21,172 bases of DNA, taken from assembly GCA_029856365.1 (NCBI GenBank), contig JAHQWW010000065.1, positions 1 through 21,172 on the forward strand, given 5' to 3'. The position numbers were made by a program, and so were the translations under genes. A model generated the notes under the pieces. It searched no databases, was not told the origin of the DNA, and was given only the letters and a program-made list of their open reading frames with translations. This document shows, piece after piece, positions 2,424 through 20,085 of this stretch. Positions within the stretch are counted from its first letter, which is position 1. Each line of letters opens with the position of its first letter. This stretch comes from Candidatus Hodarchaeota archaeon (GTDB lineage: Archaea; Asgardarchaeota; Heimdallarchaeia; Hodarchaeales; Hodarchaeaceae).

Positions 2424-3671
2424 CTAGCTAATGAATTCCCGAAACAAGCTTGAAACCGCTTGAGGGATAGCATGGAAGCTTTTCATAAAAACCCGAGGTC
2501 TTAATGCATGCTTGAGAAGGCCTATCCCGTGAAGATCTATATGACTCGTACTTAAGGATCCACCAATGTCAGTCTCTCTTCCGATTTTTATTATTTCATT
2601 CCAAGTTTCATCAGGAAGAGGGGTCAAAATACGTCGAAATAGTTTCATTAAGCTTAAGTTTGGTTCGAAAAGAGTACGCCATTGGTTTTGATAATCTCTA
2701 CACGCTTTTAAAGAAGGTAATTCTTCTAAAATTATCTTTCTAGCCATCAAACCAGCTAAACGACCACAATAACCTCCAATGTTAATACCCCCACCTGTTG
2801 TTGCCTTTGATTGCCCTGCAGCGTCTCCAATGACCATGAAGCTTTTATGATAAGTTATTTTCACTGGCCCTGAAACAGGGACGTATCCCCCATAGCTATT
2901 TGTAATTTTACTATTTTTAAAACGATCTTTTAAGAAAGGGTGTTTTCTGAATTGTTTCAAAAAGAGACGTCTTTTTCCTTTAAATCTTGGTTCAACAGCA
3001 ATACCAAGACGTACAGAGTTCTCATTGATTGGTATAAACCAACCAAAAAAACCTGGAGCATATTTTCGCCCGAAATACAGTTCTACACAATCTGGATCAA
3101 CATCTTGAGTGTCTTCAAATTCATATTGTAAGGCGGGAAAAAGCCAGTTCCTATCAGGAGGTGATAGTCCAATCGAACGCGTTAATCGAGCATGTACTCC
3201 CTCTGCAGAAACAAGCACCTTACTCCTGTGTATCTTTTTTTTCTTTTTATGATTAATGTAAAGGATCCACCCATTATCATCGAAGTGGATTTGATTTACT
3301 CTATGTTCAAGATGGTACTCACAACCATTGGTTCTCGCACGTTCTGCAAGATAATTGTCTAAGGCCACCCGATCTATAACAACCATTGAATCTTTGCCAC
3401 GATTTATATCGAACGAGCTGAAATTTGGGGCAATAAATTTAGCTCTTTTAATTTTGTTATAATTTAGTTTTGTTAAATTTAAACCTAAGTTTCGTAGTCC
3501 ATCAGTAGCAACGAGCCCAGAACATTGTAGTGGTCTTCCAATATTAGAATGTTCCTCAAATATTGACACAGATACCCCAGGTTTATATTTTACTGATTCC
3601 CAAGCTGCACATGAACCAGCAGGCCCAGCTCCAACAATCGCTAGGTCACTGTCAAAGTTAGTTGAGCTCAT
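2424..3671 (-). CDS. Geranylgeranyl reductase family FAD-dependent oxidoreductase
   Basis: FAD-binding DLAIVGAGPAGS, PLQCSG, DRVALDNYLA, PGFFGWFIP and IGDAAGQSKATTGGGI motifs. I prefer the ATG at 3671 (MSSTNFD) to the ORF-track TTG at 3692. It lacks the exact YxWxFP of characterised DGGGPL reductases, so it may be a paralog. Confidence 0.88.
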   Translation of the reverse strand: MSSTNFDSDLAIVGAGPAGSCAAWESVKYKPGVSVSIFEEHSNIGRPLQCSGLVATDGLRNLGLNLTKLNYNKIKRAKFIAPNFSSFDINRGKDSMVVIDRVALDNYLAERARTNGCEYHLEHRVNQIHFDDNGWILYINHKKKKKIHRSKVLVSAEGVHARLTRSIGLSPPDRNWLFPALQYEFEDTQDVDPDCVELYFGRKYAPGFFGWFIPINENSVRLGIAVEPRFKGKRRLFLKQFRKHPFLKDRFKNSKITNSYGGYVPVSGPVKITYHKSFMVIGDAAGQSKATTGGGINIGGYCGRLAGLMARKIILEELPSLKACRDYQNQWRTLFEPNLSLMKLFRRILTPLPDETWNEIIKIGRETDIGGSLSTSHIDLHGIGLLKHALRPRVFMKSFHAIPQAVSSLFREFIS

Positions 3672-3850
3672 TAGAGACTTTCCAAAATACAAGCACTAAT
3701 TATTACGAAAATATGAAAAAAAAAACCGTTGTTAATACATTGAACTAATAAATAAGAGTTCTTCCCTAGGAATAAGGAAAATGGCATACCTTAACTTTAG
3801 TCTTTTTACTCTAAATATTATCAGGGTTTACGGATAAGTTTGGAAGATAT

Positions 3851-3875: not shown

Positions 3876-6800
3876 TTAGATTCGCTTTGAAGTAAAGAAA
3901 TCCTGTTGTGTATTCACCATTAATTCTTCCCAAAGCAAAGACAACGGTGAAATATTGTTCATTGAAGTATCAATGCGTGATGACAGAGTATCTACTGGAG
4001 AAAATGCATTTAATGAAAGTACATTAGCTCCACCGCCGCCACCACCACCACAAAGCGTTGTGATCTTGAAGTTAGTAATTCGACTGTTGTAGCTAGTATC
4101 GCCCCAGTAGAAAATTCCCCTAGTTCTACGTTGGTTCCATTGGTCATTATAGTCACGCTCTGTATAATACCAGATCGTCCACGTACTGGCGACTAGATCC
4201 TCTGCATTTAGCTGTTCAGTTATGAAATTCACTGGTCCATAGCTATATGTTCCAATATCCATGTAGACTTCAACCATAATTGCATCAGTTGTCGTGAGGT
4301 CATATTTTGAAGACAAAACCCAAGTATTAGACTGAAGACCATTGCCATCAGTTGATCTAACAACCTGTGCTGATTTTCCAGAAGTTAATTCTGTCCTTGA
4401 TGAGTCACTATGCACAACATAGATCCTTACACTCCAAGTAACAGTCAATGAGCCACTCCATCTAGCAGTTTGTTCATTCAGAGTTTGAACGCCAGTAGAT
4501 GGAGTTGTACCTAGATTATAAGCGCCCCAACCATTAACATTATGCGAATCTGATCGGAAATACCTTATCTGAGTAGTAGTTTGATAAGCTGTAATCGTTG
4601 TGTTTGCTTTCATCTGACTTGAGTAATCATTTGAAGTGCCACCTGCATAGGTAAACCCGAATTTTATTCCAACAATCATATCGTTTACGTCGAAATACCC
4701 TCCGCTATCATTAGCATAGGTTAATGTCAGTGTAGCAATCTCATTTTGATCAATACTTATCGTATTTGTTAAATCCCTTTCAGTTCCGTTTGGAAATTCA
4801 GATGGAGTAGATACATTTGTCCATCTTGGATTGATTCCTCCTATGCCTGCTGCATCTATTTGAGTTAGCAGTGGTTCACCTAAATAGGAGAGTTTGGTAT
4901 TGTCATATAAATACACAGTCATGTTGGTGACGACAGCATCCCCACCCCCATAATTTTTGATACTAACCTCAATTTGATGGTCATATGTTCCCGTAGTGTT
5001 TGCAGTTCCCATTACATGGAAGAGAGGTTTTCCTGCTTCAGATACATCAATATCTGTTTGTATAGTAGATGTCTGGCCGCTTGTATCCTCTGCTTTAACT
5101 TCAATAGTAACAGGTGTGAGCTCTATAAAATTCGTACCAGCTATAGTGCCTTCCCAAATTGCATCTGGCTGGGGGTCAATGGAGGAATCTCCCGATGTAT
5201 GCGATAAATCAAAATAATTACTCCAACCACCTTTATCAATATCGTAACGCATTTTCACAGTTCCTCTTTCAGTTATATACCTCAAAGTACTAAATGAGGG
5301 ATCATTGTCTTTCACTTTCACTCTGACTGTAACATCTTGGCCAGGAATTGTTGGGGAAGCTATTTTAGGGTCGAATGCTAGTACGTGAGGTGCTAATTCA
5401 TCTTGAACTGTAATATGATAGGGTGAACTAGCTTCTCCATCATTTGCGTTTCCAGTTGGATCAGTCGCGTTAAAGTAGTAGTCTATACCATCTACTGTTA
5501 CATTTTCTTTAGGGATAGTAAATGTCCATGAATCACCTGATTGGCCGATAAAATTTTCGACTTGCCATGAATCTGGAGTTAATAGACCCGTATCATTTCT
5601 CTCACGCCACACAAGATTTACCAAATCTACTGTATCTTTATCTTCAACATTTATAGAAAGTTCGATTGATGGGCCTTCTAGTGTGTCTGATACAACAGTC
5701 ACTGGTATGTGTCCATAGAGATTCGGTTTTGTTGTATCCAGTACCCCAGCGTCTTGATTTGCTGAAGTTTCAGGGTTATCATCGTCATCTTTTGCAGTAA
5801 CATAATAAGTAATATTGTATTGAAGAGTACTTGAATCAACAAAATCAGCCGGCATATTGCCTTCCCAGGTATCACCTGAAGGATTAGTCATTTGTGTTGG
5901 AGTATATGTAGTACTGGAATCATTTAACTTGTAATAAATATAAGCTTCTTTGACAGCAGAAACCGAAGAACCACTATCAGTAATTGTTGCATTAACTGAG
6001 AAGGATGTTCCCACCTCAGCCAGATCTAAACCATTTGTTTTACTTGCCCCTGTAATATCCGCTATTTTTGGCTTTATATAATCATTATCAATCGTAAAGT
6101 CAATCTCGGCATCTGGATAGGTACTAGCTGAAAGTCCTGCATAATCATAAACAGTCATTCTCAAGTAATATGAACCGTTGTCCAGTCCCTCTCCCTCTGC
6201 ACTATCATTAACTGTATTCCAACTCCATGGGTACCGACCTGTACCTGCCTCTGTGATACTTTTCGTTGGACGGACAATATTATTGAATTCTGAATCACTA
6301 GCAACTTCATAAGTCACTTTCTTGATCGCTGAGTTGTCCGATACCAAAGTTGGATAAATATCTTTTTTTCTTCGAATAAAATCTAATGTTCCTGTAAAAG
6401 AAATGTCAGGGCGATCTTTTGCTAGTTGCATTTCAGTTTCTACAACATTCTCCTCTCTAGTAGTATCTAGTACAGTTCCGTCATCGGTAGTAACAGTCAT
6501 TCTATAATAAATATTATTGTCATCATTTTCCTCTGGAATAGCAAATCCAGTAGATAGTAATTTTTCTGTTGTTAAGGGATCAATGACATAAGGATTATCT
6601 TTAGTAATATCTAGCCTGTCGTGAACTTTGATTTCTGTCCAGTTACCACCAATAACACTAGTAGCGTAATAGACTCTAAAAGAAATTATTTCGATTTTTC
6701 CTGTACCAGCATTTGATAGTGTTAAAGACCCTTTTCCATAGCCTTCTCCTTCGTCCGCAGCGGTAGTATAGGCATCATCATATTCAACTTCGGCATAATC

Positions 6801-6953
6801 TAACTGAAGATTGCTTGTTGGTTCTAAGAGTGGAAGAATAACCAGAAAGATAGCAGCAACTGCAGCTACCGCAAGTCCAATTAATAAAATAACAGCAATG
6901 ACGGGGGAGACAGCACGTTTCTTATTTGATAATAAAGTGCGTAATTTCATCAA
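3876..6953 (-). CDS. Giant type IV pilin/archaellin-like surface protein (class III signal peptide plus multiple Ig-like domains)
   Basis: N-terminus KKRA|VSPVIAVILLIGLAVAAVAAIFLVI matches the archaeal prepilin (PibD/FlaK substrate) consensus. The body is T/S/D-rich and beta-rich, with ~15 N-x-S/T sequons and repeated YY.(T/A).D..(G/N) strands. GGAG precedes TTG(6953)/ATG(6950). Confidence 0.85.
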   Translation of the reverse strand: MMKLRTLLSNKKRAVSPVIAVILLIGLAVAAVAAIFLVILPLLEPTSNLQLDYAEVEYDDAYTTAADEGEGYGKGSLTLSNAGTGKIEIISFRVYYATSVIGGNWTEIKVHDRLDITKDNPYVIDPLTTEKLLSTGFAIPEENDDNNIYYRMTVTTDDGTVLDTTREENVVETEMQLAKDRPDISFTGTLDFIRRKKDIYPTLVSDNSAIKKVTYEVASDSEFNNIVRPTKSITEAGTGRYPWSWNTVNDSAEGEGLDNGSYYLRMTVYDYAGLSASTYPDAEIDFTIDNDYIKPKIADITGASKTNGLDLAEVGTSFSVNATITDSGSSVSAVKEAYIYYKLNDSSTTYTPTQMTNPSGDTWEGNMPADFVDSSTLQYNITYYVTAKDDDDNPETSANQDAGVLDTTKPNLYGHIPVTVVSDTLEGPSIELSINVEDKDTVDLVNLVWRERNDTGLLTPDSWQVENFIGQSGDSWTFTIPKENVTVDGIDYYFNATDPTGNANDGEASSPYHITVQDELAPHVLAFDPKIASPTIPGQDVTVRVKVKDNDPSFSTLRYITERGTVKMRYDIDKGGWSNYFDLSHTSGDSSIDPQPDAIWEGTIAGTNFIELTPVTIEVKAEDTSGQTSTIQTDIDVSEAGKPLFHVMGTANTTGTYDHQIEVSIKNYGGGDAVVTNMTVYLYDNTKLSYLGEPLLTQIDAAGIGGINPRWTNVSTPSEFPNGTERDLTNTISIDQNEIATLTLTYANDSGGYFDVNDMIVGIKFGFTYAGGTSNDYSSQMKANTTITAYQTTTQIRYFRSDSHNVNGWGAYNLGTTPSTGVQTLNEQTARWSGSLTVTWSVRIYVVHSDSSRTELTSGKSAQVVRSTDGNGLQSNTWVLSSKYDLTTTDAIMVEVYMDIGTYSYGPVNFITEQLNAEDLVASTWTIWYYTERDYNDQWNQRRTRGIFYWGDTSYNSRITNFKITTLCGGGGGGGANVLSLNAFSPVDTLSSRIDTSMNNISPLSLLWEELMVNTQQDFFTSKRI

Positions 6954-6999
6954 TAAATTTCTCCAAACAAATTTTTTGAATATTATTACTATGGCGTCC

Positions 7000-7096
7000 C
7001 CAAGATTCTAAATTGTATAAATCTTGGAAGATATTCATATTTGAATGATTTATATTCCCTCAATATAAAAGAATTTTGAAACCCTATTTTCTAGGG
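7000..7096. promoter_or_regulatory. Divergent promoter region with four consecutive inverted repeats and TATA-like boxes
   Basis: CCAAGATT-N12-AATCTTGG (7000-7027), ATTCA-N4-TGAAT (7033-7046), TTTATATT-N5-AATATAAA (7049-7069), CCCTA-N5-TAGGG (7082-7096). The repeats are seen directly; their function is inferred. Confidence 0.4.
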
Positions 7097-7236
7097 AATT
7101 GTTTTGAAGACCTCACATTTTTCCATATTTTATATTGTCAAGTGTTAAAAGGATTTTTTTCCTTATCTTCAGCAGAAATAATTTGAAACATCAATAATCT
7201 TTAGTAAAGCAAGGTCAAATCTTTTAATGTATATAG

Positions 7237-8925
7237 GTGTTGCCTTTTTTGAATGATCATTTCTCATCATTATTGGGAATCTACCGTACAGCCGCATTGG
7301 GTCATCCCAATGAGCTTAGTAAAGATTTATGGGGAGAAGTTCCCTCTTCCTTCCGAAAGCTGAAAACAATGATTGAACATCAACAACAAACAACTAATTT
7401 CACAGTTTTCAGCGAGAATGTTGAAGCTTTGCGGCGTCTTGCCACCGATAAGCATCGTAAAATGGGCACTTTGACTGAACGAGTGAAAGAGGCAATCGAG
7501 CGTCTGGATCAAGGTTTTTTGGACTTAGGTCATCAACCTCTTTTATTTGGTGGACCATTATTTTTAATTAACAAGGTTTCATTAGCTGAGTGGTTGGGAA
7601 ATTTGTTAAGGATAGGAACTTTTTTTTTCATTGGTGATCATGATTCAATCCAGAATGAACTAACCATTGCACGATTCCCTCAAGTAAATTCTCCTACTGG
7701 TCTGATTATCACACCATCATCTTGGGGTGTACCTGAGGGAACACCAATGCATCAAGTACCAGTTCCAGAAGAGGAGTGGTTACTAGAGATTAAACTGAAA
7801 ATTCAGGAGAATTTACGCTTACTTATGAAGATTGCAAAAGTACGTCTCGAATATCGAAAATTATTCCTGGAACGTTTTTTTTCTTGGTTCGATCTAATTT
7901 ATGATAACGCTATCACAGCTAGCAATTTTTCTTCTTGGACACAGCGGATTTGGAGCCAACTTTTCAATATTCGCAACGATCTAAGGCTGTTTCTTTGTCC
8001 CTTGAGTGATCCTCGATATCGGCAGCTTATTTTACCAGCCTTTGAGTTTTTACTCTCAGAAAACAACCGTTCCTGTTATGTGGATTCATTAAACAAGATT
8101 TATGATCAGCTGATATCTCAAAACATTCATCCAGGGCTTCCATATCGGGAAGAAGATTATGTCCCCTTTTTTCTAGAATGTCTTGAGTGTACCAATAAAA
8201 CACGAGTACAGTTACATGTATCTAGCCCAGGAGTGTTGGAGGGAGAGTGTCCTATTTGTTTAAAAAAATTCTCATTTTCTTATAACTCGAGTCATCCTGA
8301 CCTCAGTGAAATAGGCTCTCATATCACTCCCCGCTCAGACTCAAGGGCTGTAGTAAATAACTTTACTTTTCCTCTATTAACGCATATTGGAGGTTCAGGC
8401 GAAACAAAATACTATTCTGCAGTGATTCCTGCAATGAAAAGACTGAAAATCCCCCCACCAATTCTTATTCGCTCAAATAGAATTTATTACAACTCACCAT
8501 GGGCTGAAAGATCCGCTGAAAGTATAAATACCCCTATATTAGATAATAAGGTGTATTCTAATTTTAAGGAGTTCAACATTGGTAAGGAAATTCACGATGT
8601 TCAAACCACACTAGAAAAAATGAGAACTTTAATTCAGTCTAAATACGAGGAGGGAATCACTAACCTGAATACACAGCAGGAGGAGCTTAAAAACAATCCT
8701 CAAGATCATCGCTTAAGAAGTGAAATTAGAAAAACAGAGTTGATGCTTTCGCACAATTTTGGTAGATTTACTCCAGGAAAAAAAGCTCAAGAAGTTTCTT
8801 GGAATTGGTTAGATCTGGCAATTCTCACTGGTATCCATAGTATTTGCGATATTTTCCAACGGCAGCTTAAAGAGGAGGCATTTCCGGGTTACACTTGGTA
8901 TATCACAGCTGGAAAGTTTACATAA
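7237..8925 (+). CDS. bshC: BshC-like protein (bacillithiol cysteine-adding enzyme family) with zinc-ribbon insertion
   Basis: Motifs are colinear with BshC: GHQPLLFGGPLFLINK (cf. GQQAGLLTGPLYTIHK), FFIGDHD (cf. FWVAGEDHD), PLLTHIGGSGETKYY (cf. PTLAFIAGPGEINYW), a C-terminal coiled coil, and AQEVSWN (cf. PQERIWN). Length is 562 aa. The symbol denotes the family, not a proven function. Confidence 0.82.
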   Translation: MLPFLNDHFSSLLGIYRTAALGHPNELSKDLWGEVPSSFRKLKTMIEHQQQTTNFTVFSENVEALRRLATDKHRKMGTLTERVKEAIERLDQGFLDLGHQPLLFGGPLFLINKVSLAEWLGNLLRIGTFFFIGDHDSIQNELTIARFPQVNSPTGLIITPSSWGVPEGTPMHQVPVPEEEWLLEIKLKIQENLRLLMKIAKVRLEYRKLFLERFFSWFDLIYDNAITASNFSSWTQRIWSQLFNIRNDLRLFLCPLSDPRYRQLILPAFEFLLSENNRSCYVDSLNKIYDQLISQNIHPGLPYREEDYVPFFLECLECTNKTRVQLHVSSPGVLEGECPICLKKFSFSYNSSHPDLSEIGSHITPRSDSRAVVNNFTFPLLTHIGGSGETKYYSAVIPAMKRLKIPPPILIRSNRIYYNSPWAERSAESINTPILDNKVYSNFKEFNIGKEIHDVQTTLEKMRTLIQSKYEEGITNLNTQQEELKNNPQDHRLRSEIRKTELMLSHNFGRFTPGKKAQEVSWNWLDLAILTGIHSICDIFQRQLKEEAFPGYTWYITAGKFT

Positions 8926-9013: not shown

Positions 9014-10270
9014 TTAAGCTTTTTCTTGCAACAATTTCCCGAGTCGTTCCATACCATCCTCTATTATTTGGGTTGATGTGTATGAGAAGCTTAATCTCAT
9101 TCCATTCGTTTTAATCCTGTTTCCATGTAACTTGGAATCAAATCTACTGATTGAGTAGCCTTTTATAGGATAAAACGCTTGACCTGGTACATAGAGAACA
9201 TCATTAGGAATCGCTACGTCTTGTAAAAACTTTGCTGAATCAAAATTTTCACTTTCCATTTGGAACCAGAAGAAGAAGCCTCCTGTAGGATTGGTTCGCT
9301 GGCCATTGGAGGGAAAATGTTCATCAATTGTTTTCTGCATTTCATCACGACGTTCTTCGTAAATTTTTAGATTATCGCCCAAGACTTGGTCAATGTACTT
9401 TGAATAATAAATTTCAAGGATTTTTTGGTTAAGGCTGGAGGTACAGAGGTCTAAATACCCTTTATCTTTAATCATAGGGACCATTATTTCTTCTGGGAGA
9501 ACCGAATAACCAAGTCGAAGAACAGCAGCCTCTTTGCTACTTGTACGTAAATAAGCGACCCATTTATTCTCTGAATCGTATTTCTTAATTGGGGGTGGAA
9601 TTTTAGTAAACTGGATTTCACGGTAAGCTGAGTCTTCGATTAGGAGAATCTCGTGTTGTGTTATCAATTCAAAGAGCTTTTTTCGTCTTTTTTCAGTGAG
9701 TGTTGTGCCTTTGGGGTTATCGGATTCTGAAACAACGTAAATAGCTTTCGGGGTTCGATTTAATTCTCTTTGACTTATTTCAATTGCTTTTTCCACATAT
9801 TCTGGAATGAGGCCGTCCATATCTGTAGGTACAGTTAACACATCCCCTCCTAATTTCGTAACTGGTACAACGAATCCCAAATATGAGGGACGAGCCATAA
9901 TAATTACATCTTTAGGCCTCAGTATTACATCTAAAATGCCATAGAGCATTTGTTGAGATCCTGTAGATATAAGGATGTCATCTAATCCCTTGGGGAGAGT
10001 TACTCCATCTTTTTCCCTCATTCTCTTTCCTAAAGTTTCTTTCAAAGAAGCCAGACCACTTGTTGGACCATAATTCAAAGTGTCAATACCATCAATGTCT
10101 AATTCGTCTGCAATTTGATAAAGAATCTTTTTAAAAGCTTCAATAGGGAGACTACCAGGTTTTCCGCCACCAAAATAATACTTAACATTTGTTAAAAGAA
10201 GACGACGGATCTCGCTTTCGGGGACAAATTCAGTCCATTCAGCTAGTTGTTCATAGTAAGGGGGACTCAT
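9014..10270 (-). CDS. PLP-dependent aminotransferase class I/II (LysN/Aro8-like, 2-aminoadipate/aromatic transaminase type)
   Basis: SEIRRLL, FGGGKP, LNYGPTSG, STGSQQ, NPKG, IEDSAY, PLP-lysine motif TSSK...LRLGY, GGFFFW, YVPGQAF and MRLSFS. Confidence 0.92.
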   Translation of the reverse strand: MSPPYYEQLAEWTEFVPESEIRRLLLTNVKYYFGGGKPGSLPIEAFKKILYQIADELDIDGIDTLNYGPTSGLASLKETLGKRMREKDGVTLPKGLDDILISTGSQQMLYGILDVILRPKDVIIMARPSYLGFVVPVTKLGGDVLTVPTDMDGLIPEYVEKAIEISQRELNRTPKAIYVVSESDNPKGTTLTEKRRKKLFELITQHEILLIEDSAYREIQFTKIPPPIKKYDSENKWVAYLRTSSKEAAVLRLGYSVLPEEIMVPMIKDKGYLDLCTSSLNQKILEIYYSKYIDQVLGDNLKIYEERRDEMQKTIDEHFPSNGQRTNPTGGFFFWFQMESENFDSAKFLQDVAIPNDVLYVPGQAFYPIKGYSISRFDSKLHGNRIKTNGMRLSFSYTSTQIIEDGMERLGKLLQEKA

Positions 10271-12318: not shown

Positions 12319-12610
12319 TTATGCCAATCACCAAGTATTTATTAGTCATCTATTCCTCTAAATCTCCTTAATTTTAACAAGATTTGCGTAGGCATCTTTC
12401 TTTCATTTCTTTATATAATCTTCAGTTAGTTTTGAAATTGCCAAGACCAATCATGGCAAGTAATAAAACCAATATATAGAAAAAAAGGAATTAAGTATTA
12501 GATATTTTAAAGCTTTCATGTCGCTTTATTAAAAATGTTTAGAGTAACCATGAGCAGTTATCTCCATGTAATCGAAGTTTCAATTATCTATGCGATGTGA
12601 GGAAGTTAAA

Positions 12611-13741
12611 ATGACGTTTCGTGAGAAATTACCCTCAATTCTGATTTACACGATCACTATTGCTGTTTTAATTGGAATAATTCTATTTATCGGACTTCAA
12701 AGATTAATCAATTACTTTACAGACCTAGATTTTGAGGGGATCTTAATGTTGGTTTTACTACTATTTCTACTGTATCTTGTAGATATGCTAATCAGAATAT
12801 ATCGATGGCAACTTTTGCTCAATATTCAAGGCGTAAAACTCCCCTATAAATCATTAACTTTCCCTGTGGTCTCAGCATTGGCAATTAATCTGTTTACCAT
12901 CGCCCGTGCTGGCGAAGCTATTCGTATGTATGCATTAAAAAGGAATTATGATACAAAATATTCTGATACACTCTCATCTATTGTCATTGAACAGGTTTTA
13001 AGCATTGTTGGCTTGCTTTTTGTGATTATCGGAAGCTTATTTTTTGTTGGTAGTACTTTATTGCAAATCGAGAATTCAGAGATTATTCTACAATTAGTAC
13101 TAATTATTTTTCTTGTCTCAGTATTTGGATTGATAATCTTGTTACTAATGATGGTAAAACCCGATATAATTGAAAAATTTTTCCATATTTTTCCTCTATT
13201 TATTGAAAAAAAACTAGATTCTGCTTATCAAGCATTTCAAGCAGGAATAAAGGGTCTCCGTTCTCAACCACTCCATCTCTCTCTTGGAATTATCACTTCT
13301 GCTTCTATATGGGTGATTGAAGGGATTATGATATATGTAATAGCAATCACTGTATTCCCAATTCTCACCCTAATAGATTTTCCTTATGTGATCGCTGCAT
13401 CATGTGTAGGAAATATCACATTCATTATACCTATTCTTCCAGGAGCAATGGGGCAATATGAGGTTATATTAGCATTAGTGCTCATAAATTCTCCAAATTA
13501 CCCAGGACACGATGCTGCTCTCATAGCTTTCATTGATCGTATTGCAAAATCTGTAATGCTAGGTATTTTTGGTGGATATGCAATACTTAGACTTGGAGGA
13601 AAGGAAATTATACGACTGAGAAAAGATTTTTTTTCAATTTCGAAAAAACCAAATGAACTTAAGAAAAAAAAGGATGTTAATGTTGAAATAGAACCCACGG
13701 AAAAGACTGATGAGAACAAACCTAGAAATAAGACTGTATAA
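12611..13741 (+). CDS. UPF0104 / lysylphosphatidylglycerol-synthase TM-region (AglD2 flippase-like) membrane protein
   Basis: About 8-9 hydrophobic segments with IRIYRWQLLL, ARAGEAIRMY, SSIVIEQ and PILPGAMGQYE motifs. The ATG at 12611 has GAGG upstream; the ORF-track alternative start is 12590. Confidence 0.88.
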   Translation: MTFREKLPSILIYTITIAVLIGIILFIGLQRLINYFTDLDFEGILMLVLLLFLLYLVDMLIRIYRWQLLLNIQGVKLPYKSLTFPVVSALAINLFTIARAGEAIRMYALKRNYDTKYSDTLSSIVIEQVLSIVGLLFVIIGSLFFVGSTLLQIENSEIILQLVLIIFLVSVFGLIILLLMMVKPDIIEKFFHIFPLFIEKKLDSAYQAFQAGIKGLRSQPLHLSLGIITSASIWVIEGIMIYVIAITVFPILTLIDFPYVIAASCVGNITFIIPILPGAMGQYEVILALVLINSPNYPGHDAALIAFIDRIAKSVMLGIFGGYAILRLGGKEIIRLRKDFFSISKKPNELKKKKDVNVEIEPTEKTDENKPRNKTV

Positions 13742-13745
13742 AGAA

Positions 13746-13752
13746 AGGAGGT
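13746..13752 (+). promoter_or_regulatory. Shine-Dalgarno sequence for egsA
   Basis: AGGAGGT lies 7 nt before the in-frame ATA at 13760. Confidence 0.7.
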
Positions 13753-13759
13753 CTTAGTT

Positions 13760-14848
13760 ATAGATTATATCCAGGAGATACATGTTCCTAGAAGAGTTGC
13801 TTTTGGACCCAAGGCTGTTCAAAGAATCCCCAGCGTCTGTAAGGATATTGGAATAAAAAAGATCAAAATTTTCAGTGGAAGAACTCAAACAAAGAAGCTT
13901 ACATCTAATGTTATCATCCCCCAAGTAGAGGGAATTTTAGACTTTTCTTATACTGTATTTCCTGAGAATGTGGACTTAAAATATCTTCATTCTCAAGCAT
14001 CTACTATTCAGGATAAACAAACATATCTCGTGGCAGTTGGAGGGGGGAAAGTTATAGACTATGTAAAGGTCATCGCACGTCTTTCTCAGACAAAATATGT
14101 AGCTGTACCCACTAATGCTAGTCATGATGGTTTTTCTAGTCCTTATGTTAATTTCCTCTTAAGAGAAGAAATTGCTAAAGAGGAAAAAAATCCAAATTCT
14201 CCCATATATACACCAGTTTCTCCGATCGCGATTGTTGGAGATACATCATTGATTAGTCAGGCTCCTAAAGAGTCATTACAAGCCGGAGTAGGGGATATCC
14301 TCGCAAAATGGGTCGCTGTGAGAGATTGGAAACTCGCTCATCGTTTAAAAGGAGAGAAATTTGATATTTACGCTGCAACGTTCTCTGAAATGACAGCAAA
14401 CATGGTTGAGGAGGGGATTAGCTCGTTGGGAAGATTTTTTTTTAGTGAAGAAGGGATTCGTGTTTTAATGAAAGCATTGGGAAGCAGTGGGGTTGCCATG
14501 TGTATTGCTGGATCTTCTCGTCCCGCTAGTGGCTCGGAACATCTTGTTAGTCATGCCTTAGATAAACTATCTAAGAAATATAACTTTCAAGTAGCTCACG
14601 GCCATCAAACAGGTATGATGGCCATTTTGATGATGTATCTTCATGGAGGTAACTGGAAACGAATTCGAGATATCCTTGTTGGAGTTGCTGCTCCAGTCAC
14701 CCTGCATGAAGTGGGAATTGAACGTGAAATACTGCTAGAAGCTGTGCTAGAAGCCCATAAAATTCGTCCAGAACGCTATACTATACTAGCTGAGGGCTTA
14801 TCTAAACAGGCTGCAATAAATGCAATTGAAATGACTGGAATCGACTAA
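13760..14848 (+). CDS. egsA: sn-glycerol-1-phosphate dehydrogenase (362 aa if started at ATA 13760)
   Basis: VGGGKVID, VPTNASHDGFSSP, AGVGDILAK, AGSSRPASGSEHLVSHALD, HGHQTG and AHKIRPERYTIL. The frame stays open upstream of the ORF-track start (13970) and encodes the family N-terminus (EIHVPRRVAFGPKAV...VCKDIG). The product call is firm; the start codon is uncertain. Confidence 0.93.
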   Translation: MDYIQEIHVPRRVAFGPKAVQRIPSVCKDIGIKKIKIFSGRTQTKKLTSNVIIPQVEGILDFSYTVFPENVDLKYLHSQASTIQDKQTYLVAVGGGKVIDYVKVIARLSQTKYVAVPTNASHDGFSSPYVNFLLREEIAKEEKNPNSPIYTPVSPIAIVGDTSLISQAPKESLQAGVGDILAKWVAVRDWKLAHRLKGEKFDIYAATFSEMTANMVEEGISSLGRFFFSEEGIRVLMKALGSSGVAMCIAGSSRPASGSEHLVSHALDKLSKKYNFQVAHGHQTGMMAILMMYLHGGNWKRIRDILVGVAAPVTLHEVGIEREILLEAVLEAHKIRPERYTILAEGLSKQAAINAIEMTGID

Positions 14849-17365: not shown

Positions 17366-19927
17366 TTAACTTGATAAAGGAGTCTCGATTTTATTAATTA
17401 ATATAGAAATCATTTTTTCAAGTTTGGGGTTTCTCGTGGCTTTTACAATTCGCTGAATGCCTTCAAGTTCATGGACTAGTCCATTTAAGAAGGATAGAAT
17501 GTCCCCAGGATAGATTAAGAGTTCAAAACGGGTAATACTAGCTGAAATTTGATTGATATTCTTACCACGAAGTCTTTCATTAACAATTTCTCTCCCAATT
17601 TTCTCCACTCCATGATGACAATAAGGATTTTCTGTACATTTACAGTTAAAAAAATGTTGGGTCCATTTTGAAAAAACGTTTAAACACCATTTATTAACTT
17701 CAATTTTTTCTTTACCTTTTAAGGAAGCACTCATAACATCTAGAACAGGACTATCTATCAATCTAGTGGAAAATCTCATGTGATACTTCTGTTCAAGGTA
17801 TCGATGAAGTTTCTTTGACAGGTAAACGTTTTGAGGCGGCATCATCTCGAGAGCAATAGATAGAAAGTGCTTTTTACTCCTAAGAAGTGATAAAATTGAC
17901 AATGCTTTAGCTGGAGAGAAAAACGACAGAACTGCTGCTCGACCTAAAGGAGTTAATTCCAAAGATCTTCTCTGTGGTGTTTCAACAATTCCAAGTAAGG
18001 AACTCTTGATAAGCTTGTTTGCGCTTAACATAAAGTCAAAACTAGTGGTTCCTATCATTCTTTGGTAGATCTCATTAGCCCTTCTTGGTGATATATGCTT
18101 TTTTGAAGAACAAATAGACAGTATTTGTTCACCACAAGAATCAGCATCATAATTTGGTTCTATTGGCAGCAAATCGGCATTAAGAAGTTCAAAAGCAATC
18201 TCAACTTCTGATCTAGGATCTAAAGAAGAGATTGATTCTCCCAAACATAGAAGAACAACTCGCCCACGATCATGTTTTCCCAATCTACCAGCTCTCCCTG
18301 CCATTTGGGTGAAATTATTTGGTTCTAGAACAGTATTACCCATCATTAAAGATTCAAAAATAACTTGTGACGCCGGAAAGTCAACACCAGCCCCCAATGC
18401 AAATGTACTTATTACAATTGAGCATTTTCCGGTAGAAAATTTCATTTCAATTCGTTTTCTTAAAGCATAAGAAAGTCCTGAATGATAGGCATGAACGTCA
18501 TGAACACCTGCATGACGTAAGGACTCTGCAATTTCTGTTGTTTTCCTCCGTGAGTTAGTAAAGACAATTGTTTGACCTCGATAGCCACAACTCGAAGTCA
18601 GTTGGAATTCTTTTTGTGTTAATTTGAGAATCTGGCGTAATTTTTCATGTTCACTTCGTGAGAGGAGCAAATGTTTCTCTAATGGAATAGGTCTTTGATC
18701 AAAGGTTACTAAAGTTAAGAGAAGATCATTTGCAAACTGTATTGGATTTCCAATCGTTGCTGAGAGCGCTATTACTTGAGCTTTTTGTGCATAAACCCTA
18801 ATTTTTGCTAACAGACAATCTAAAGTCGGCCCTCGATCAGAATCAGCTATTGTTTGCACTTCATCAATGACAATACAGCCAATTTTGTCAAAATCAACTT
18901 GGCCCGCTCTGATCAAAAGATCTAACCCTTCATATGTAGCTACAATAATATCGGAATCTTTAATGGAATATCTAACGCGATAGAAAGCTCTTTTTTCCGC
19001 TTGTGAGTTGAAGATTCTTGAACGACCAGTTCGCAACCCAACTTTAAATTTGGCTCCGTAAAACTTCTTAAAATCTTCGAATTTAGTGTTAGCTAGAGCA
19101 ACTAGAGGAACGGTAAAAATAAATTTCCTGTTTTTCAACACATGAGATATTCCTGCTATTTCACCAATAAGTGTTTTACCTGCACTCGTATTAGCAATGA
19201 TTAATTGGTTATTATTCTTTAACAATCCCTTTTGAAGTGCTTGAACTTGAATGGGAAGAAATACCTCTATTCCACGAGATTGTAAGGAATTCAAAAGAAA
19301 TTTCGGAATTGAGAACTCTGTGACGTCTCGGATTAAGGATTGTAATAAGGCTTCAGGAGCTTTTTTAATTTTCTGAACGAGAGTAAAATCTCCAATAGAG
19401 GCTTGGTCTCCAGTAAAAACAGCTGAAACTTTTTGAATGTCGTGTAATTTTTCTAAAAGAGATAATGTATACTTTTTAAAACCTGGATTTGTGAAAAGAT
19501 TGATTTTTTTATTCTTAAGCTCATTTTCCAGTTCGAGAATTGCACATGATTTGCAAACCTCACGATCAAAAACGAAATAATTATTTGTTGGTGGAAGAAG
19601 TGTTACAATATCACGTATTAAACAAAATGGACAGAGCTCTCTTTCCTCAAGAGAGGTTTTGATATTGAAATCTTTGCAAAATCCCTTTATCCCTTCTTTT
19701 TCGTTGGGTAAGAGCCTTTTACTTAATAAGATATACCTTGATTTTATTAGAATCTCCTGAATCATTTTTTTGGGAGGATAAGGCTTCCATTTACCTTGTT
19801 CTTCCCAAAATATCCTCCATGGTCGCCACAAATTTCCCTGTTTGAAACGATATTCGATTTTTCCTCGAAAAGTAGCCTTTCTTTGTGTCATTCTTCCCTT
19901 AGAGAAACAAAGTATGTATAATGTCAT
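17366..19927 (-). CDS. Archaea-specific Ski2-like SF2 DExH/D helicase (COG1202 / ASH-Ski2 type)
   Basis: Q-motif FLPIQ, motif I ANTSAGKT, VPLVALAN, ATYEGLD, DEVQ, LSAT, YHSGL, GAGVDFPASQVIFESL and QMAGRAGR. N-terminal CPFC...CKSC and C-terminal CKCTENPYCHHG Cys clusters. I prefer ATG 19927 to TTG 19990. Confidence 0.9.
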   Translation of the reverse strand: MTLYILCFSKGRMTQRKATFRGKIEYRFKQGNLWRPWRIFWEEQGKWKPYPPKKMIQEILIKSRYILLSKRLLPNEKEGIKGFCKDFNIKTSLEERELCPFCLIRDIVTLLPPTNNYFVFDREVCKSCAILELENELKNKKINLFTNPGFKKYTLSLLEKLHDIQKVSAVFTGDQASIGDFTLVQKIKKAPEALLQSLIRDVTEFSIPKFLLNSLQSRGIEVFLPIQVQALQKGLLKNNNQLIIANTSAGKTLIGEIAGISHVLKNRKFIFTVPLVALANTKFEDFKKFYGAKFKVGLRTGRSRIFNSQAEKRAFYRVRYSIKDSDIIVATYEGLDLLIRAGQVDFDKIGCIVIDEVQTIADSDRGPTLDCLLAKIRVYAQKAQVIALSATIGNPIQFANDLLLTLVTFDQRPIPLEKHLLLSRSEHEKLRQILKLTQKEFQLTSSCGYRGQTIVFTNSRRKTTEIAESLRHAGVHDVHAYHSGLSYALRKRIEMKFSTGKCSIVISTFALGAGVDFPASQVIFESLMMGNTVLEPNNFTQMAGRAGRLGKHDRGRVVLLCLGESISSLDPRSEVEIAFELLNADLLPIEPNYDADSCGEQILSICSSKKHISPRRANEIYQRMIGTTSFDFMLSANKLIKSSLLGIVETPQRRSLELTPLGRAAVLSFFSPAKALSILSLLRSKKHFLSIALEMMPPQNVYLSKKLHRYLEQKYHMRFSTRLIDSPVLDVMSASLKGKEKIEVNKWCLNVFSKWTQHFFNCKCTENPYCHHGVEKIGREIVNERLRGKNINQISASITRFELLIYPGDILSFLNGLVHELEGIQRIVKATRNPKLEKMISILINKIETPLSS

Positions 19928-20085
19928 CTCTTGCTTGGTTGGAAGGAATAATGTAGTATATACGGATTGAAATGAAAGCAAAGGAATCAACGATTTTGTT
20001 TTCTACCCAACAAATGAAAGATAGGCAATGAAAAAACTTTTTTTATGAGGCAAATAAAAAAGCAAAGTGTTAAAATAAAAGAGTC

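Follow-up and report, generated by a model that had tools for sequence, protein, structure and literature searches.

Our analysis of contig JAHQWW010000065.1 from a Candidatus Hodarchaeota archaeon (assembly GCA_029856365.1; the whole stretch of 21,172 nucleotides is called the window here) suggests that the gene at 7237..8925 (+) encodes a functional, Asgard-type relative of the bacillithiol enzyme BshC in a genus where BshA was not found. In bacillithiol synthesis, BshA is the N-acetylglucosamine (GlcNAc)-malate synthase of the first step, and BshC is assumed to act on glucosamine (GlcN)-malate much as MshC does in the mycothiol pathway, where ATP-activated cysteine is transferred to GlcN-inositol. 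We put at roughly 55% the probability that the protein of the window catalyses amide formation of the BshC type, the acceptor being a glucosamine-type amine on a carrier that does not come from BshA, a reading that draws on homology and on the gene clusters of Asgard relatives. The open reading frame (ORF), of the zinc-ribbon type and of clade C as defined below, is full length, as an earlier note on this DNA had claimed, and encodes 562 amino acids (aa) from a GTG start; translation could also begin at a TTG at 7240 or 7249, the latter matching the position where some homologs start. Its closest homologs (55-77% identity) are in records labelled Hodarchaeales, Hodarchaeota, Heimdallarchaeota and similar, which places the organism in the Heimdall group of Asgard archaea.

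The assignment to the BshC family made in that note is borne out by profiles and by the predicted fold. The protein passes the Pfam model PF10079 (Rossmann-like_BshC) with 37.1 bits against a gathering cut-off of 27 (E 3.2e-9), although only over aa 220-411, and no further BshC domain appeared among the Pfam matches listed for the C-terminal part. It fails the BshC equivalog model TIGR03998, with 39 bits over aa 227-487 against a cut-off of 265.8, where canonical representatives score 382-465 bits and the canonical copies of one Asgard family (f7, discussed below) score 376-386. A phmmer search of the PDB with the single protein of the window gave no match, and BshC was found only by profile and by fold. 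The profile of 15 family members matches Bacillus subtilis BshC (YllA; 4WBD) over its whole length in three collinear pieces (E 2.5e-8). An AlphaFold2 model built from 67 sequences (predicted local distance difference test score 95.7, predicted template-modelling score 0.94) retrieved 4WBD as the top-ranked Foldseek match (E 6e-17), and in VIA-align residues 9-558 of the model superpose on residues 11-539 of the 4WBD chain with Z 35.4 and a root-mean-square deviation of 3.3 A over 464 residues. The fold of 4WBD combines a Rossmann core, connective-peptide inserts and a C-terminal helical coiled-coil domain (PMC4360819); the superposed model has this fold, including a C-terminal helical hairpin (helices 452-486 and 491-508). 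Architecture, length and end-to-end superposition are thus those of B. subtilis BshC, whereas identity to it is only 14%. The next-best structure was class I lysyl-tRNA synthetase (LysRS; archaeal, 1IRX, PF01921; Z 22.1 over 300 residues), and all other synthetases reached at most 12.4. MshC (3C8Z), which catalyses the analogous reaction and shares the Rossmann core common to class I synthetases, is a paralog of cysteinyl-tRNA synthetase and structurally much further from the protein of the window (Z 10.8) than either BshC or class I LysRS. As judged from profiles and model, the protein is a distant member of the BshC superfamily that lies outside the BshC equivalogs.

The motifs named in the earlier note are all present, and the full set is collinear with that of canonical BshC, in the order G(H/Q)QP...GGP...K, (E/G)DHD, SP(R/N)...R, GGxGE..Y and C-terminal QE. 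GHQP (aa 98-101; 7528..7539, +) follows the first Rossmann strand and aligns with GQQ/HQP of canonical BshC and 4WBD; neither H99 nor Q100 varies among the 15 aligned sequences. GDHD (aa 133-136; 7633..7644, +) stands for the canonical (S/G)EDHD, and D134 is conserved across the Asgard family. SPRxDxR aligns with SPNVxLRP, GGSGE (aa 385-389; 8389..8403, +) is the counterpart of GGPGE and was aligned to 4WBD, and QEV (aa 518-520; 8788..8796, +) corresponds to the C-terminal LQER. By position along the sequence, GHQP and GGxGE would occupy the places expected for the HIGH and KMSKS motifs of class I synthetases. The substitutions that had been singled out as altered conserved positions do exist, but those in GGxGE and QEV carry little meaning because both positions vary within the family: the x of GGxGE may be S, A, G, T or, as in BshC, P in some members, and QEV is replaced by QEA, PEV or PDV. 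In a comparison of 60 sequences from four groups, canonical BshC included, twelve residues were common to all (Q100, G106, K113, D136, E141, F311, R323, G386, E389, Y392, P408 and E519). The same comparison found no residue separating the BshA-linked clade B from the BshA-less clade C, so the catalytic core of clade C looks unchanged and the difference would lie in the supply of the acceptor.

What sets the Asgard proteins apart from canonical BshC is an insert of four short strands (aa 308-348; 8158..8280, +), recognized in the alignment and the model, with a predicted Cys4 zinc ribbon formed by C315, C318, C338 and C341. The four cysteines are invariant in the 15-sequence alignment, whereas the corresponding segment of canonical BshC has none. 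The PF..C..C ... C..C arrangement aligns with the zinc knuckle of the class I LysRS of the same genome (L082:1468-3120), but the sequence similarity is marginal (hhalign probability 9%) and no anticodon-binding domain was matched. As an aside, the BshC superfamily may have derived from class I LysRS, the knuckle being lost later in bacterial BshC.

Proteins of this type form a family of their own. The family profile retrieved 57 matches at E 1e-30 or better from 1.84 billion representatives, and these constitute the Asgard family; canonical BshCs came only towards the bottom of the 150 matches listed, and among the matches listed there were no fused forms, the longest protein having 609 aa. 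The protein of the window scores 876 bits against the 15-sequence profile over its full length and has the four cysteines of the family. Members were found in 194 of 399 Asgard genomes, mostly as a single copy. A quick maximum-likelihood tree, with support from the Shimodaira-Hasegawa-like approximate likelihood ratio test (SH-aLRT) only and no bootstrap, makes the Asgard family monophyletic (98 SH-aLRT) and sister to canonical BshC, and splits it provisionally into clade A (Asgard families f19 and f20), clade B (f4, f6, f12 and f31) and clade C (f1, f2 and several metagenomic sequences), the last of which holds the gene of the window. The phylogeny recommended in the earlier note as a check therefore qualifies its description of an orphan archaeal protein: the gene is without local partners, but it is not isolated, being part of an Asgard-wide family with clades whose genes are clustered. 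A second tier of BshC-superfamily proteins (P0119-P0189; e.g., P0142 from Anaerolineae and P0129, an Asgard paralog) has a CxxC pair at the position of the zinc ribbon, lacks GGxGE and gives a weak NCBIfam match or none.

The gene clusters of the relatives suggest what the family does. In 20-kb neighbourhoods from 15 other genomes, whose ORFs were clustered, the clade B genes adjoin a GT4 glycosyltransferase that passes the BshA equivalog model TIGR03999 (325-396 bits against a cut-off of 273.7) and a PIG-L deacetylase, the same two genomic partners that BshC has, and in f31 an archaeal GlmM as well (528 bits against 439). Clade A genes form a tight operon of a GT2 glycosyltransferase, a BshB1-like PIG-L deacetylase and the BshC-like gene in six genomes from two families, all of them without BshA. 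The GT2 resembles polyprenyl-phosphate sugar synthases, and the operon suggests a third route to an acceptor. An Amidohydro_2 gene stands beside the operon at loci L047, L048 and L063-L066. No glycosyltransferase or PIG-L gene neighboured the BshC-like gene in the ten clade C contexts examined.

Co-occurrence across related genomes, another check that had been proposed, gives the same picture. The search with TIGR03999, which recovers the Bacillus and Deinococcus controls, found BshA equivalogs in 146 of the 399 Asgard genomes, and BshA and the BshC-like gene occur together in f3-f6, f12 and f31-33. In per-family counts, which leave out the window's own genome, the BshC-like gene and BshA were found, respectively, in 30/31 and 30/31 genomes of f4, 12/12 and 12/12 of f6, 17/19 and 16/19 of f12, and 79/89 and 75/89 of f31-33. 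No such pairing was seen in f1, the window's genus (19/21 and 0/21), or in f2 (2/2 and 0/2), and BshA was likewise missing from f19 (8/14 and 0/14) and f20 (19/135 and 0/135). Family f7 has BshA in 10 of 12 genomes, and in none of the 12 did the Asgard family profile give a match at E 1e-5 or better. All five f7 genomes tested instead encode a canonical BshC, which looks like a separate acquisition of bacterial type; its gene lies about 0.7 kb from that for BshA wherever the two positions are listed. At loci L068-L070 (G082:C90:62215-65554 and relatives) of that family, a BshA equivalog of more than 400 bits lies near the canonical BshC. The window's genome shares its phylum and class with family f7, whose BshA-BshC pair establishes the presence of bacillithiol-type genes in Asgard archaea; the BshC of f7 passes the equivalog model, whereas the protein of the window is of the separate zinc-ribbon type. 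The canonical and the zinc-ribbon types are complementary in their distribution, and the fact that BshA travels with either of them argues that the clade B enzymes do the job of BshC.

In the window's genus, the first enzyme of the pathway is missing while a putative deacetylase and the BshC-like gene have been kept. Scans of all ORFs of at least 80 aa against Pfam or NCBIfam found no GT4 and no PIG-L gene in the window, in line with what the earlier note had claimed for BshA-type glycosyltransferases and deacetylases. The absence of BshA extends to the genome, 83.6% complete, where the best match was 101.8 bits (cut-off 273.7), and it holds for each of the 22 genus genomes (maximum 158.5 bits), a set that includes single-contig assemblies and assemblies 96-99% complete. 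For clade C as a whole, the absence of BshA rests on the genomes of f1 and f2. With respect to BshA, the gene is thus an orphan as had been claimed. The search of the genome for bshA and bshB had a mixed outcome, since BshA was not found and a BshB1-like PIG-L protein was, on contig C9, with 158.1 bits on TIGR04001 against a cut-off of 182.5. Such a protein is present in 22/22 genomes of the genus; the copy on C9 is 36% identical to the deacetylase of the clade A operon, and in the six genus genomes where the PIG-L and BshC-like genes share a contig they lie 38-53 kb apart. A lipid-type GT4 is conserved in the genus, and no PIG-A (PF08288) was found in the window's genome or in the three other genus genomes searched. 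The bacillithiol redox partners BrxA/B (PF06491), BrxC (PF11009) and YpdA (TIGR04018) have no equivalog in the genus either, a test that does not discriminate because Asgard genomes with full clusters lack equivalogs of these proteins as well.

The BshC-like gene is under purifying selection in the genus. The ratio of nonsynonymous to synonymous substitution rates (dN/dS) is 0.09-0.15 (0.146 where dS is unsaturated and about 0.1 in the other comparisons), and an intact full-length ORF is present in 20 of the 22 genomes, the two without a match being 91% and 71% complete. That the gene is a relic in decay, the bacillithiol pathway having been lost, is very improbable, for although BshA has been lost genus-wide and two of the 22 genomes have no BshC-like match, the intact ORFs, the low dN/dS and the retention of the invariant residues and of the Cys4 site all speak against decay.

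Together, these observations favour a functional Asgard-type BshC, predicted to consist of a Rossmann core like that of class I aminoacyl-tRNA synthetases, connective-peptide inserts of which one is the Cys4 zinc ribbon, and a C-terminal hairpin. The enzyme would form an amide bond between an amino acid, cysteine by analogy, and the 2-amino group that de-N-acetylation has freed on a glucosamine glycoside. In the genus, the acceptor would be a glucosamine-bearing molecule made by another glycosyltransferase instead of the GlcN-malate that depends on BshA; it is because BshA is missing while the BshB1-like deacetylase is kept that the acceptor is probably built in this way. Which reaction is catalysed, which amino acid is used and what kind of acceptor receives it are inferred from homology and from the gene clusters of relatives. 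Several points weigh against this reading. No glycosyltransferase partner was identified in the window's genome, which is only 83.6% complete; its best GT4 (contig C18) resembles lipid glycosyltransferases, falls below every NCBIfam cut-off and is a candidate only. Around the PIG-L gene on contig C9 lie a small GTPase, histidine-utilisation genes and an archaeosine transglycosylase, neighbours that are uninformative and do not include a glycosyltransferase. The score of the protein on the equivalog model is only 39 bits, and the three-clade split is provisional, coming from a quick tree with SH-aLRT values of 88-100. Finally, no BshC activity has been reconstituted in vitro, and the reference chemistry is itself inferred from genetics (PMC4360819).

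The conserved neighbours of the gene bear on how the alternatives are weighed. Upstream, across a divergent, AT-rich intergenic region of 283 bp (6954..7236, read directly), lies a divergently transcribed gene (3876..6953, -) for a giant protein of 1025 aa with an archaeal class III (pilin-type) signal. Its N-terminus matches Pilin_N and DUF7289, both under the gathering cut-offs, and it has 16 N-glycosylation sequons and a single cysteine. In four other clade C contexts, orthologs with 28-39% identity directly adjoin the gene for a BshC-like protein that is only 31-41% identical to that of the window, in divergent or co-directional orientation, and the two genes are also adjacent in genomes of the genus. 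With the protein of the window as query, it was found among the 399 genomes only in f1 (17/21) and f2 (1/2); since it evolves fast, the search may have been too insensitive to detect it elsewhere. No usable match for it came from the ESM Atlas. On the other side lies a convergent gene (9014..10270, -) for a class I/II aminotransferase of the archaeal multi-substrate or kynurenine-aminoadipate type (PF00155; 1WST, E 7e-49). Three settings (the window's genus, the P0058 context and f31) place an ortholog of it beside the BshC-like gene, and a phosphoglucomutase/phosphomannomutase (PGM/PMM) gene is nearby in two of them, f31 included. The aminotransferase and the PGM/PMM gene may be remnants of an ancestral bsh-type region that lost BshA. 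A neighbouring arginyl-tRNA synthetase gene is the single, housekeeping copy of the genome, which is why we take its position for synteny rather than for the sign of a dedicated partner.

Among the other explanations, the one that survives best is that the protein has left amino-sugar metabolism altogether, either for an aminoacyl-tRNA-dependent or nucleotide-linked reaction or for a structural or regulatory role tied to the pilin-signal protein. The ten clade C contexts without a glycosyltransferase or PIG-L neighbour would fit such a shift, as would a giant surface protein as the conserved neighbour, and class I LysRS is the nearest fold after BshC, with a LysRS-like zinc knuckle kept in the Asgard proteins; the mechanism of BshC is itself still unsettled. 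We nevertheless think this explanation unlikely. All the residues common to canonical BshC and to the BshA-linked clade are retained, no clade-specific replacements were found, and the sister clades sit firmly within clusters of GlcNAc glycosyltransferases and deacetylases.

Rather improbable in our view is ordinary bacillithiol synthesis from dispersed genes, in which a non-orthologous glycosyltransferase would make GlcNAc-malate, the PIG-L protein would deacetylate it and the protein of the window would add cysteine. The universal presence of the BshB1-like PIG-L in the genus, at 38-53 kb on the same contig in six genomes, speaks for it, and so does the lack of fixed residue differences from clade B, while the adjacent aminotransferase and the PGM/PMM gene of f31 suggest descent from a bsh-type cluster. 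Yet BshA, readily found in 146 other Asgard genomes, is missing from every one of the 22 genus genomes, where the best score is 158 bits and the cut-off 273.7. This weakens the first option of the earlier note, in which canonical genes scattered over the genome would make bacillithiol, and leaves room for its second, an amino-sugar acceptor of another kind. Nor did the analysis turn up a candidate glycosyltransferase for malate, and bacillithiol has never been detected in archaea (PMC7278568).

A bolder reading places the product outside soluble thiols, the clade C enzyme aminoacylating glucosamine on a membrane lipid or on a glycan of the giant surface protein. We offer this reading tentatively and would not bet on it, although it is compatible with the GT2 that takes the place of BshA in clade A, with the lipid-type GT4 of the genus and with the 16 sequons of the giant protein. 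If true, it would amount to an archaeal aminoacyl-glycoconjugate pathway without a described counterpart.

The window is AT-rich (31-41% G+C) and holds archaeal genes for a glycerol-1-phosphate dehydrogenase, a geranylgeranyl reductase family protein and a Hel308-like helicase, besides the pilin-type-signal protein. Within 7 kb of the BshC-like gene are a stand-alone LPG_synthase_TM protein, similar to the MprF flippase (12590-13741, +), the geranylgeranyl reductase (2424-3692, -) and the glycerol-1-phosphate dehydrogenase (13742-14848, +); this order of lipid genes recurs in the L077 context, where the BshC-like protein is 41% identical to that of the window, through function or mere synteny. 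The frame of the dehydrogenase is open from 13742, but its conserved N-terminal stretch of about 76 codons has no ATG, GTG or TTG, and ORF callers truncate the gene to a 292-aa product from a GTG at 13970. An AAGGAGG at 13746-13752 is followed by ATA at 13760, and translation may be initiated at a non-canonical codon. The Hel308-like helicase (17366-19990, -) matches its family core from aa 221 and has an N-terminal extension of about 220 aa without a listed family match.

The suggestion of an undescribed archaeal pathway stands in part. Asgard homologs of BshA and BshC are already in the literature, as a 2020 review gave InterPro counts of both in archaea, mostly Asgard, and considered these organisms possible bacillithiol makers (PMC7278568); BLAST searches in a 2025 preprint found the complete pathway in no archaeon. 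In the papers we read on archaeal bacillithiol genes we found no description of the zinc-ribbon type, of its three genomic contexts, of its complementarity with canonical BshC or of the conserved BshA-less clade. BshC is the one step of bacillithiol synthesis with a mechanism that has never been reconstituted, and a second, diverged type narrows the common core to about a dozen residues and supplies new proteins for trials in vitro. The lineages that carry BshA, PIG-L and the BshC-like gene make an Asgard thiol of bacillithiol type directly testable, where previously there was only the database count of the review. The lineage of the window is, in turn, a natural BshA knockout in which the BshC-like gene is under selection, which would imply either another route to the acceptor or a second acceptor for the enzyme.

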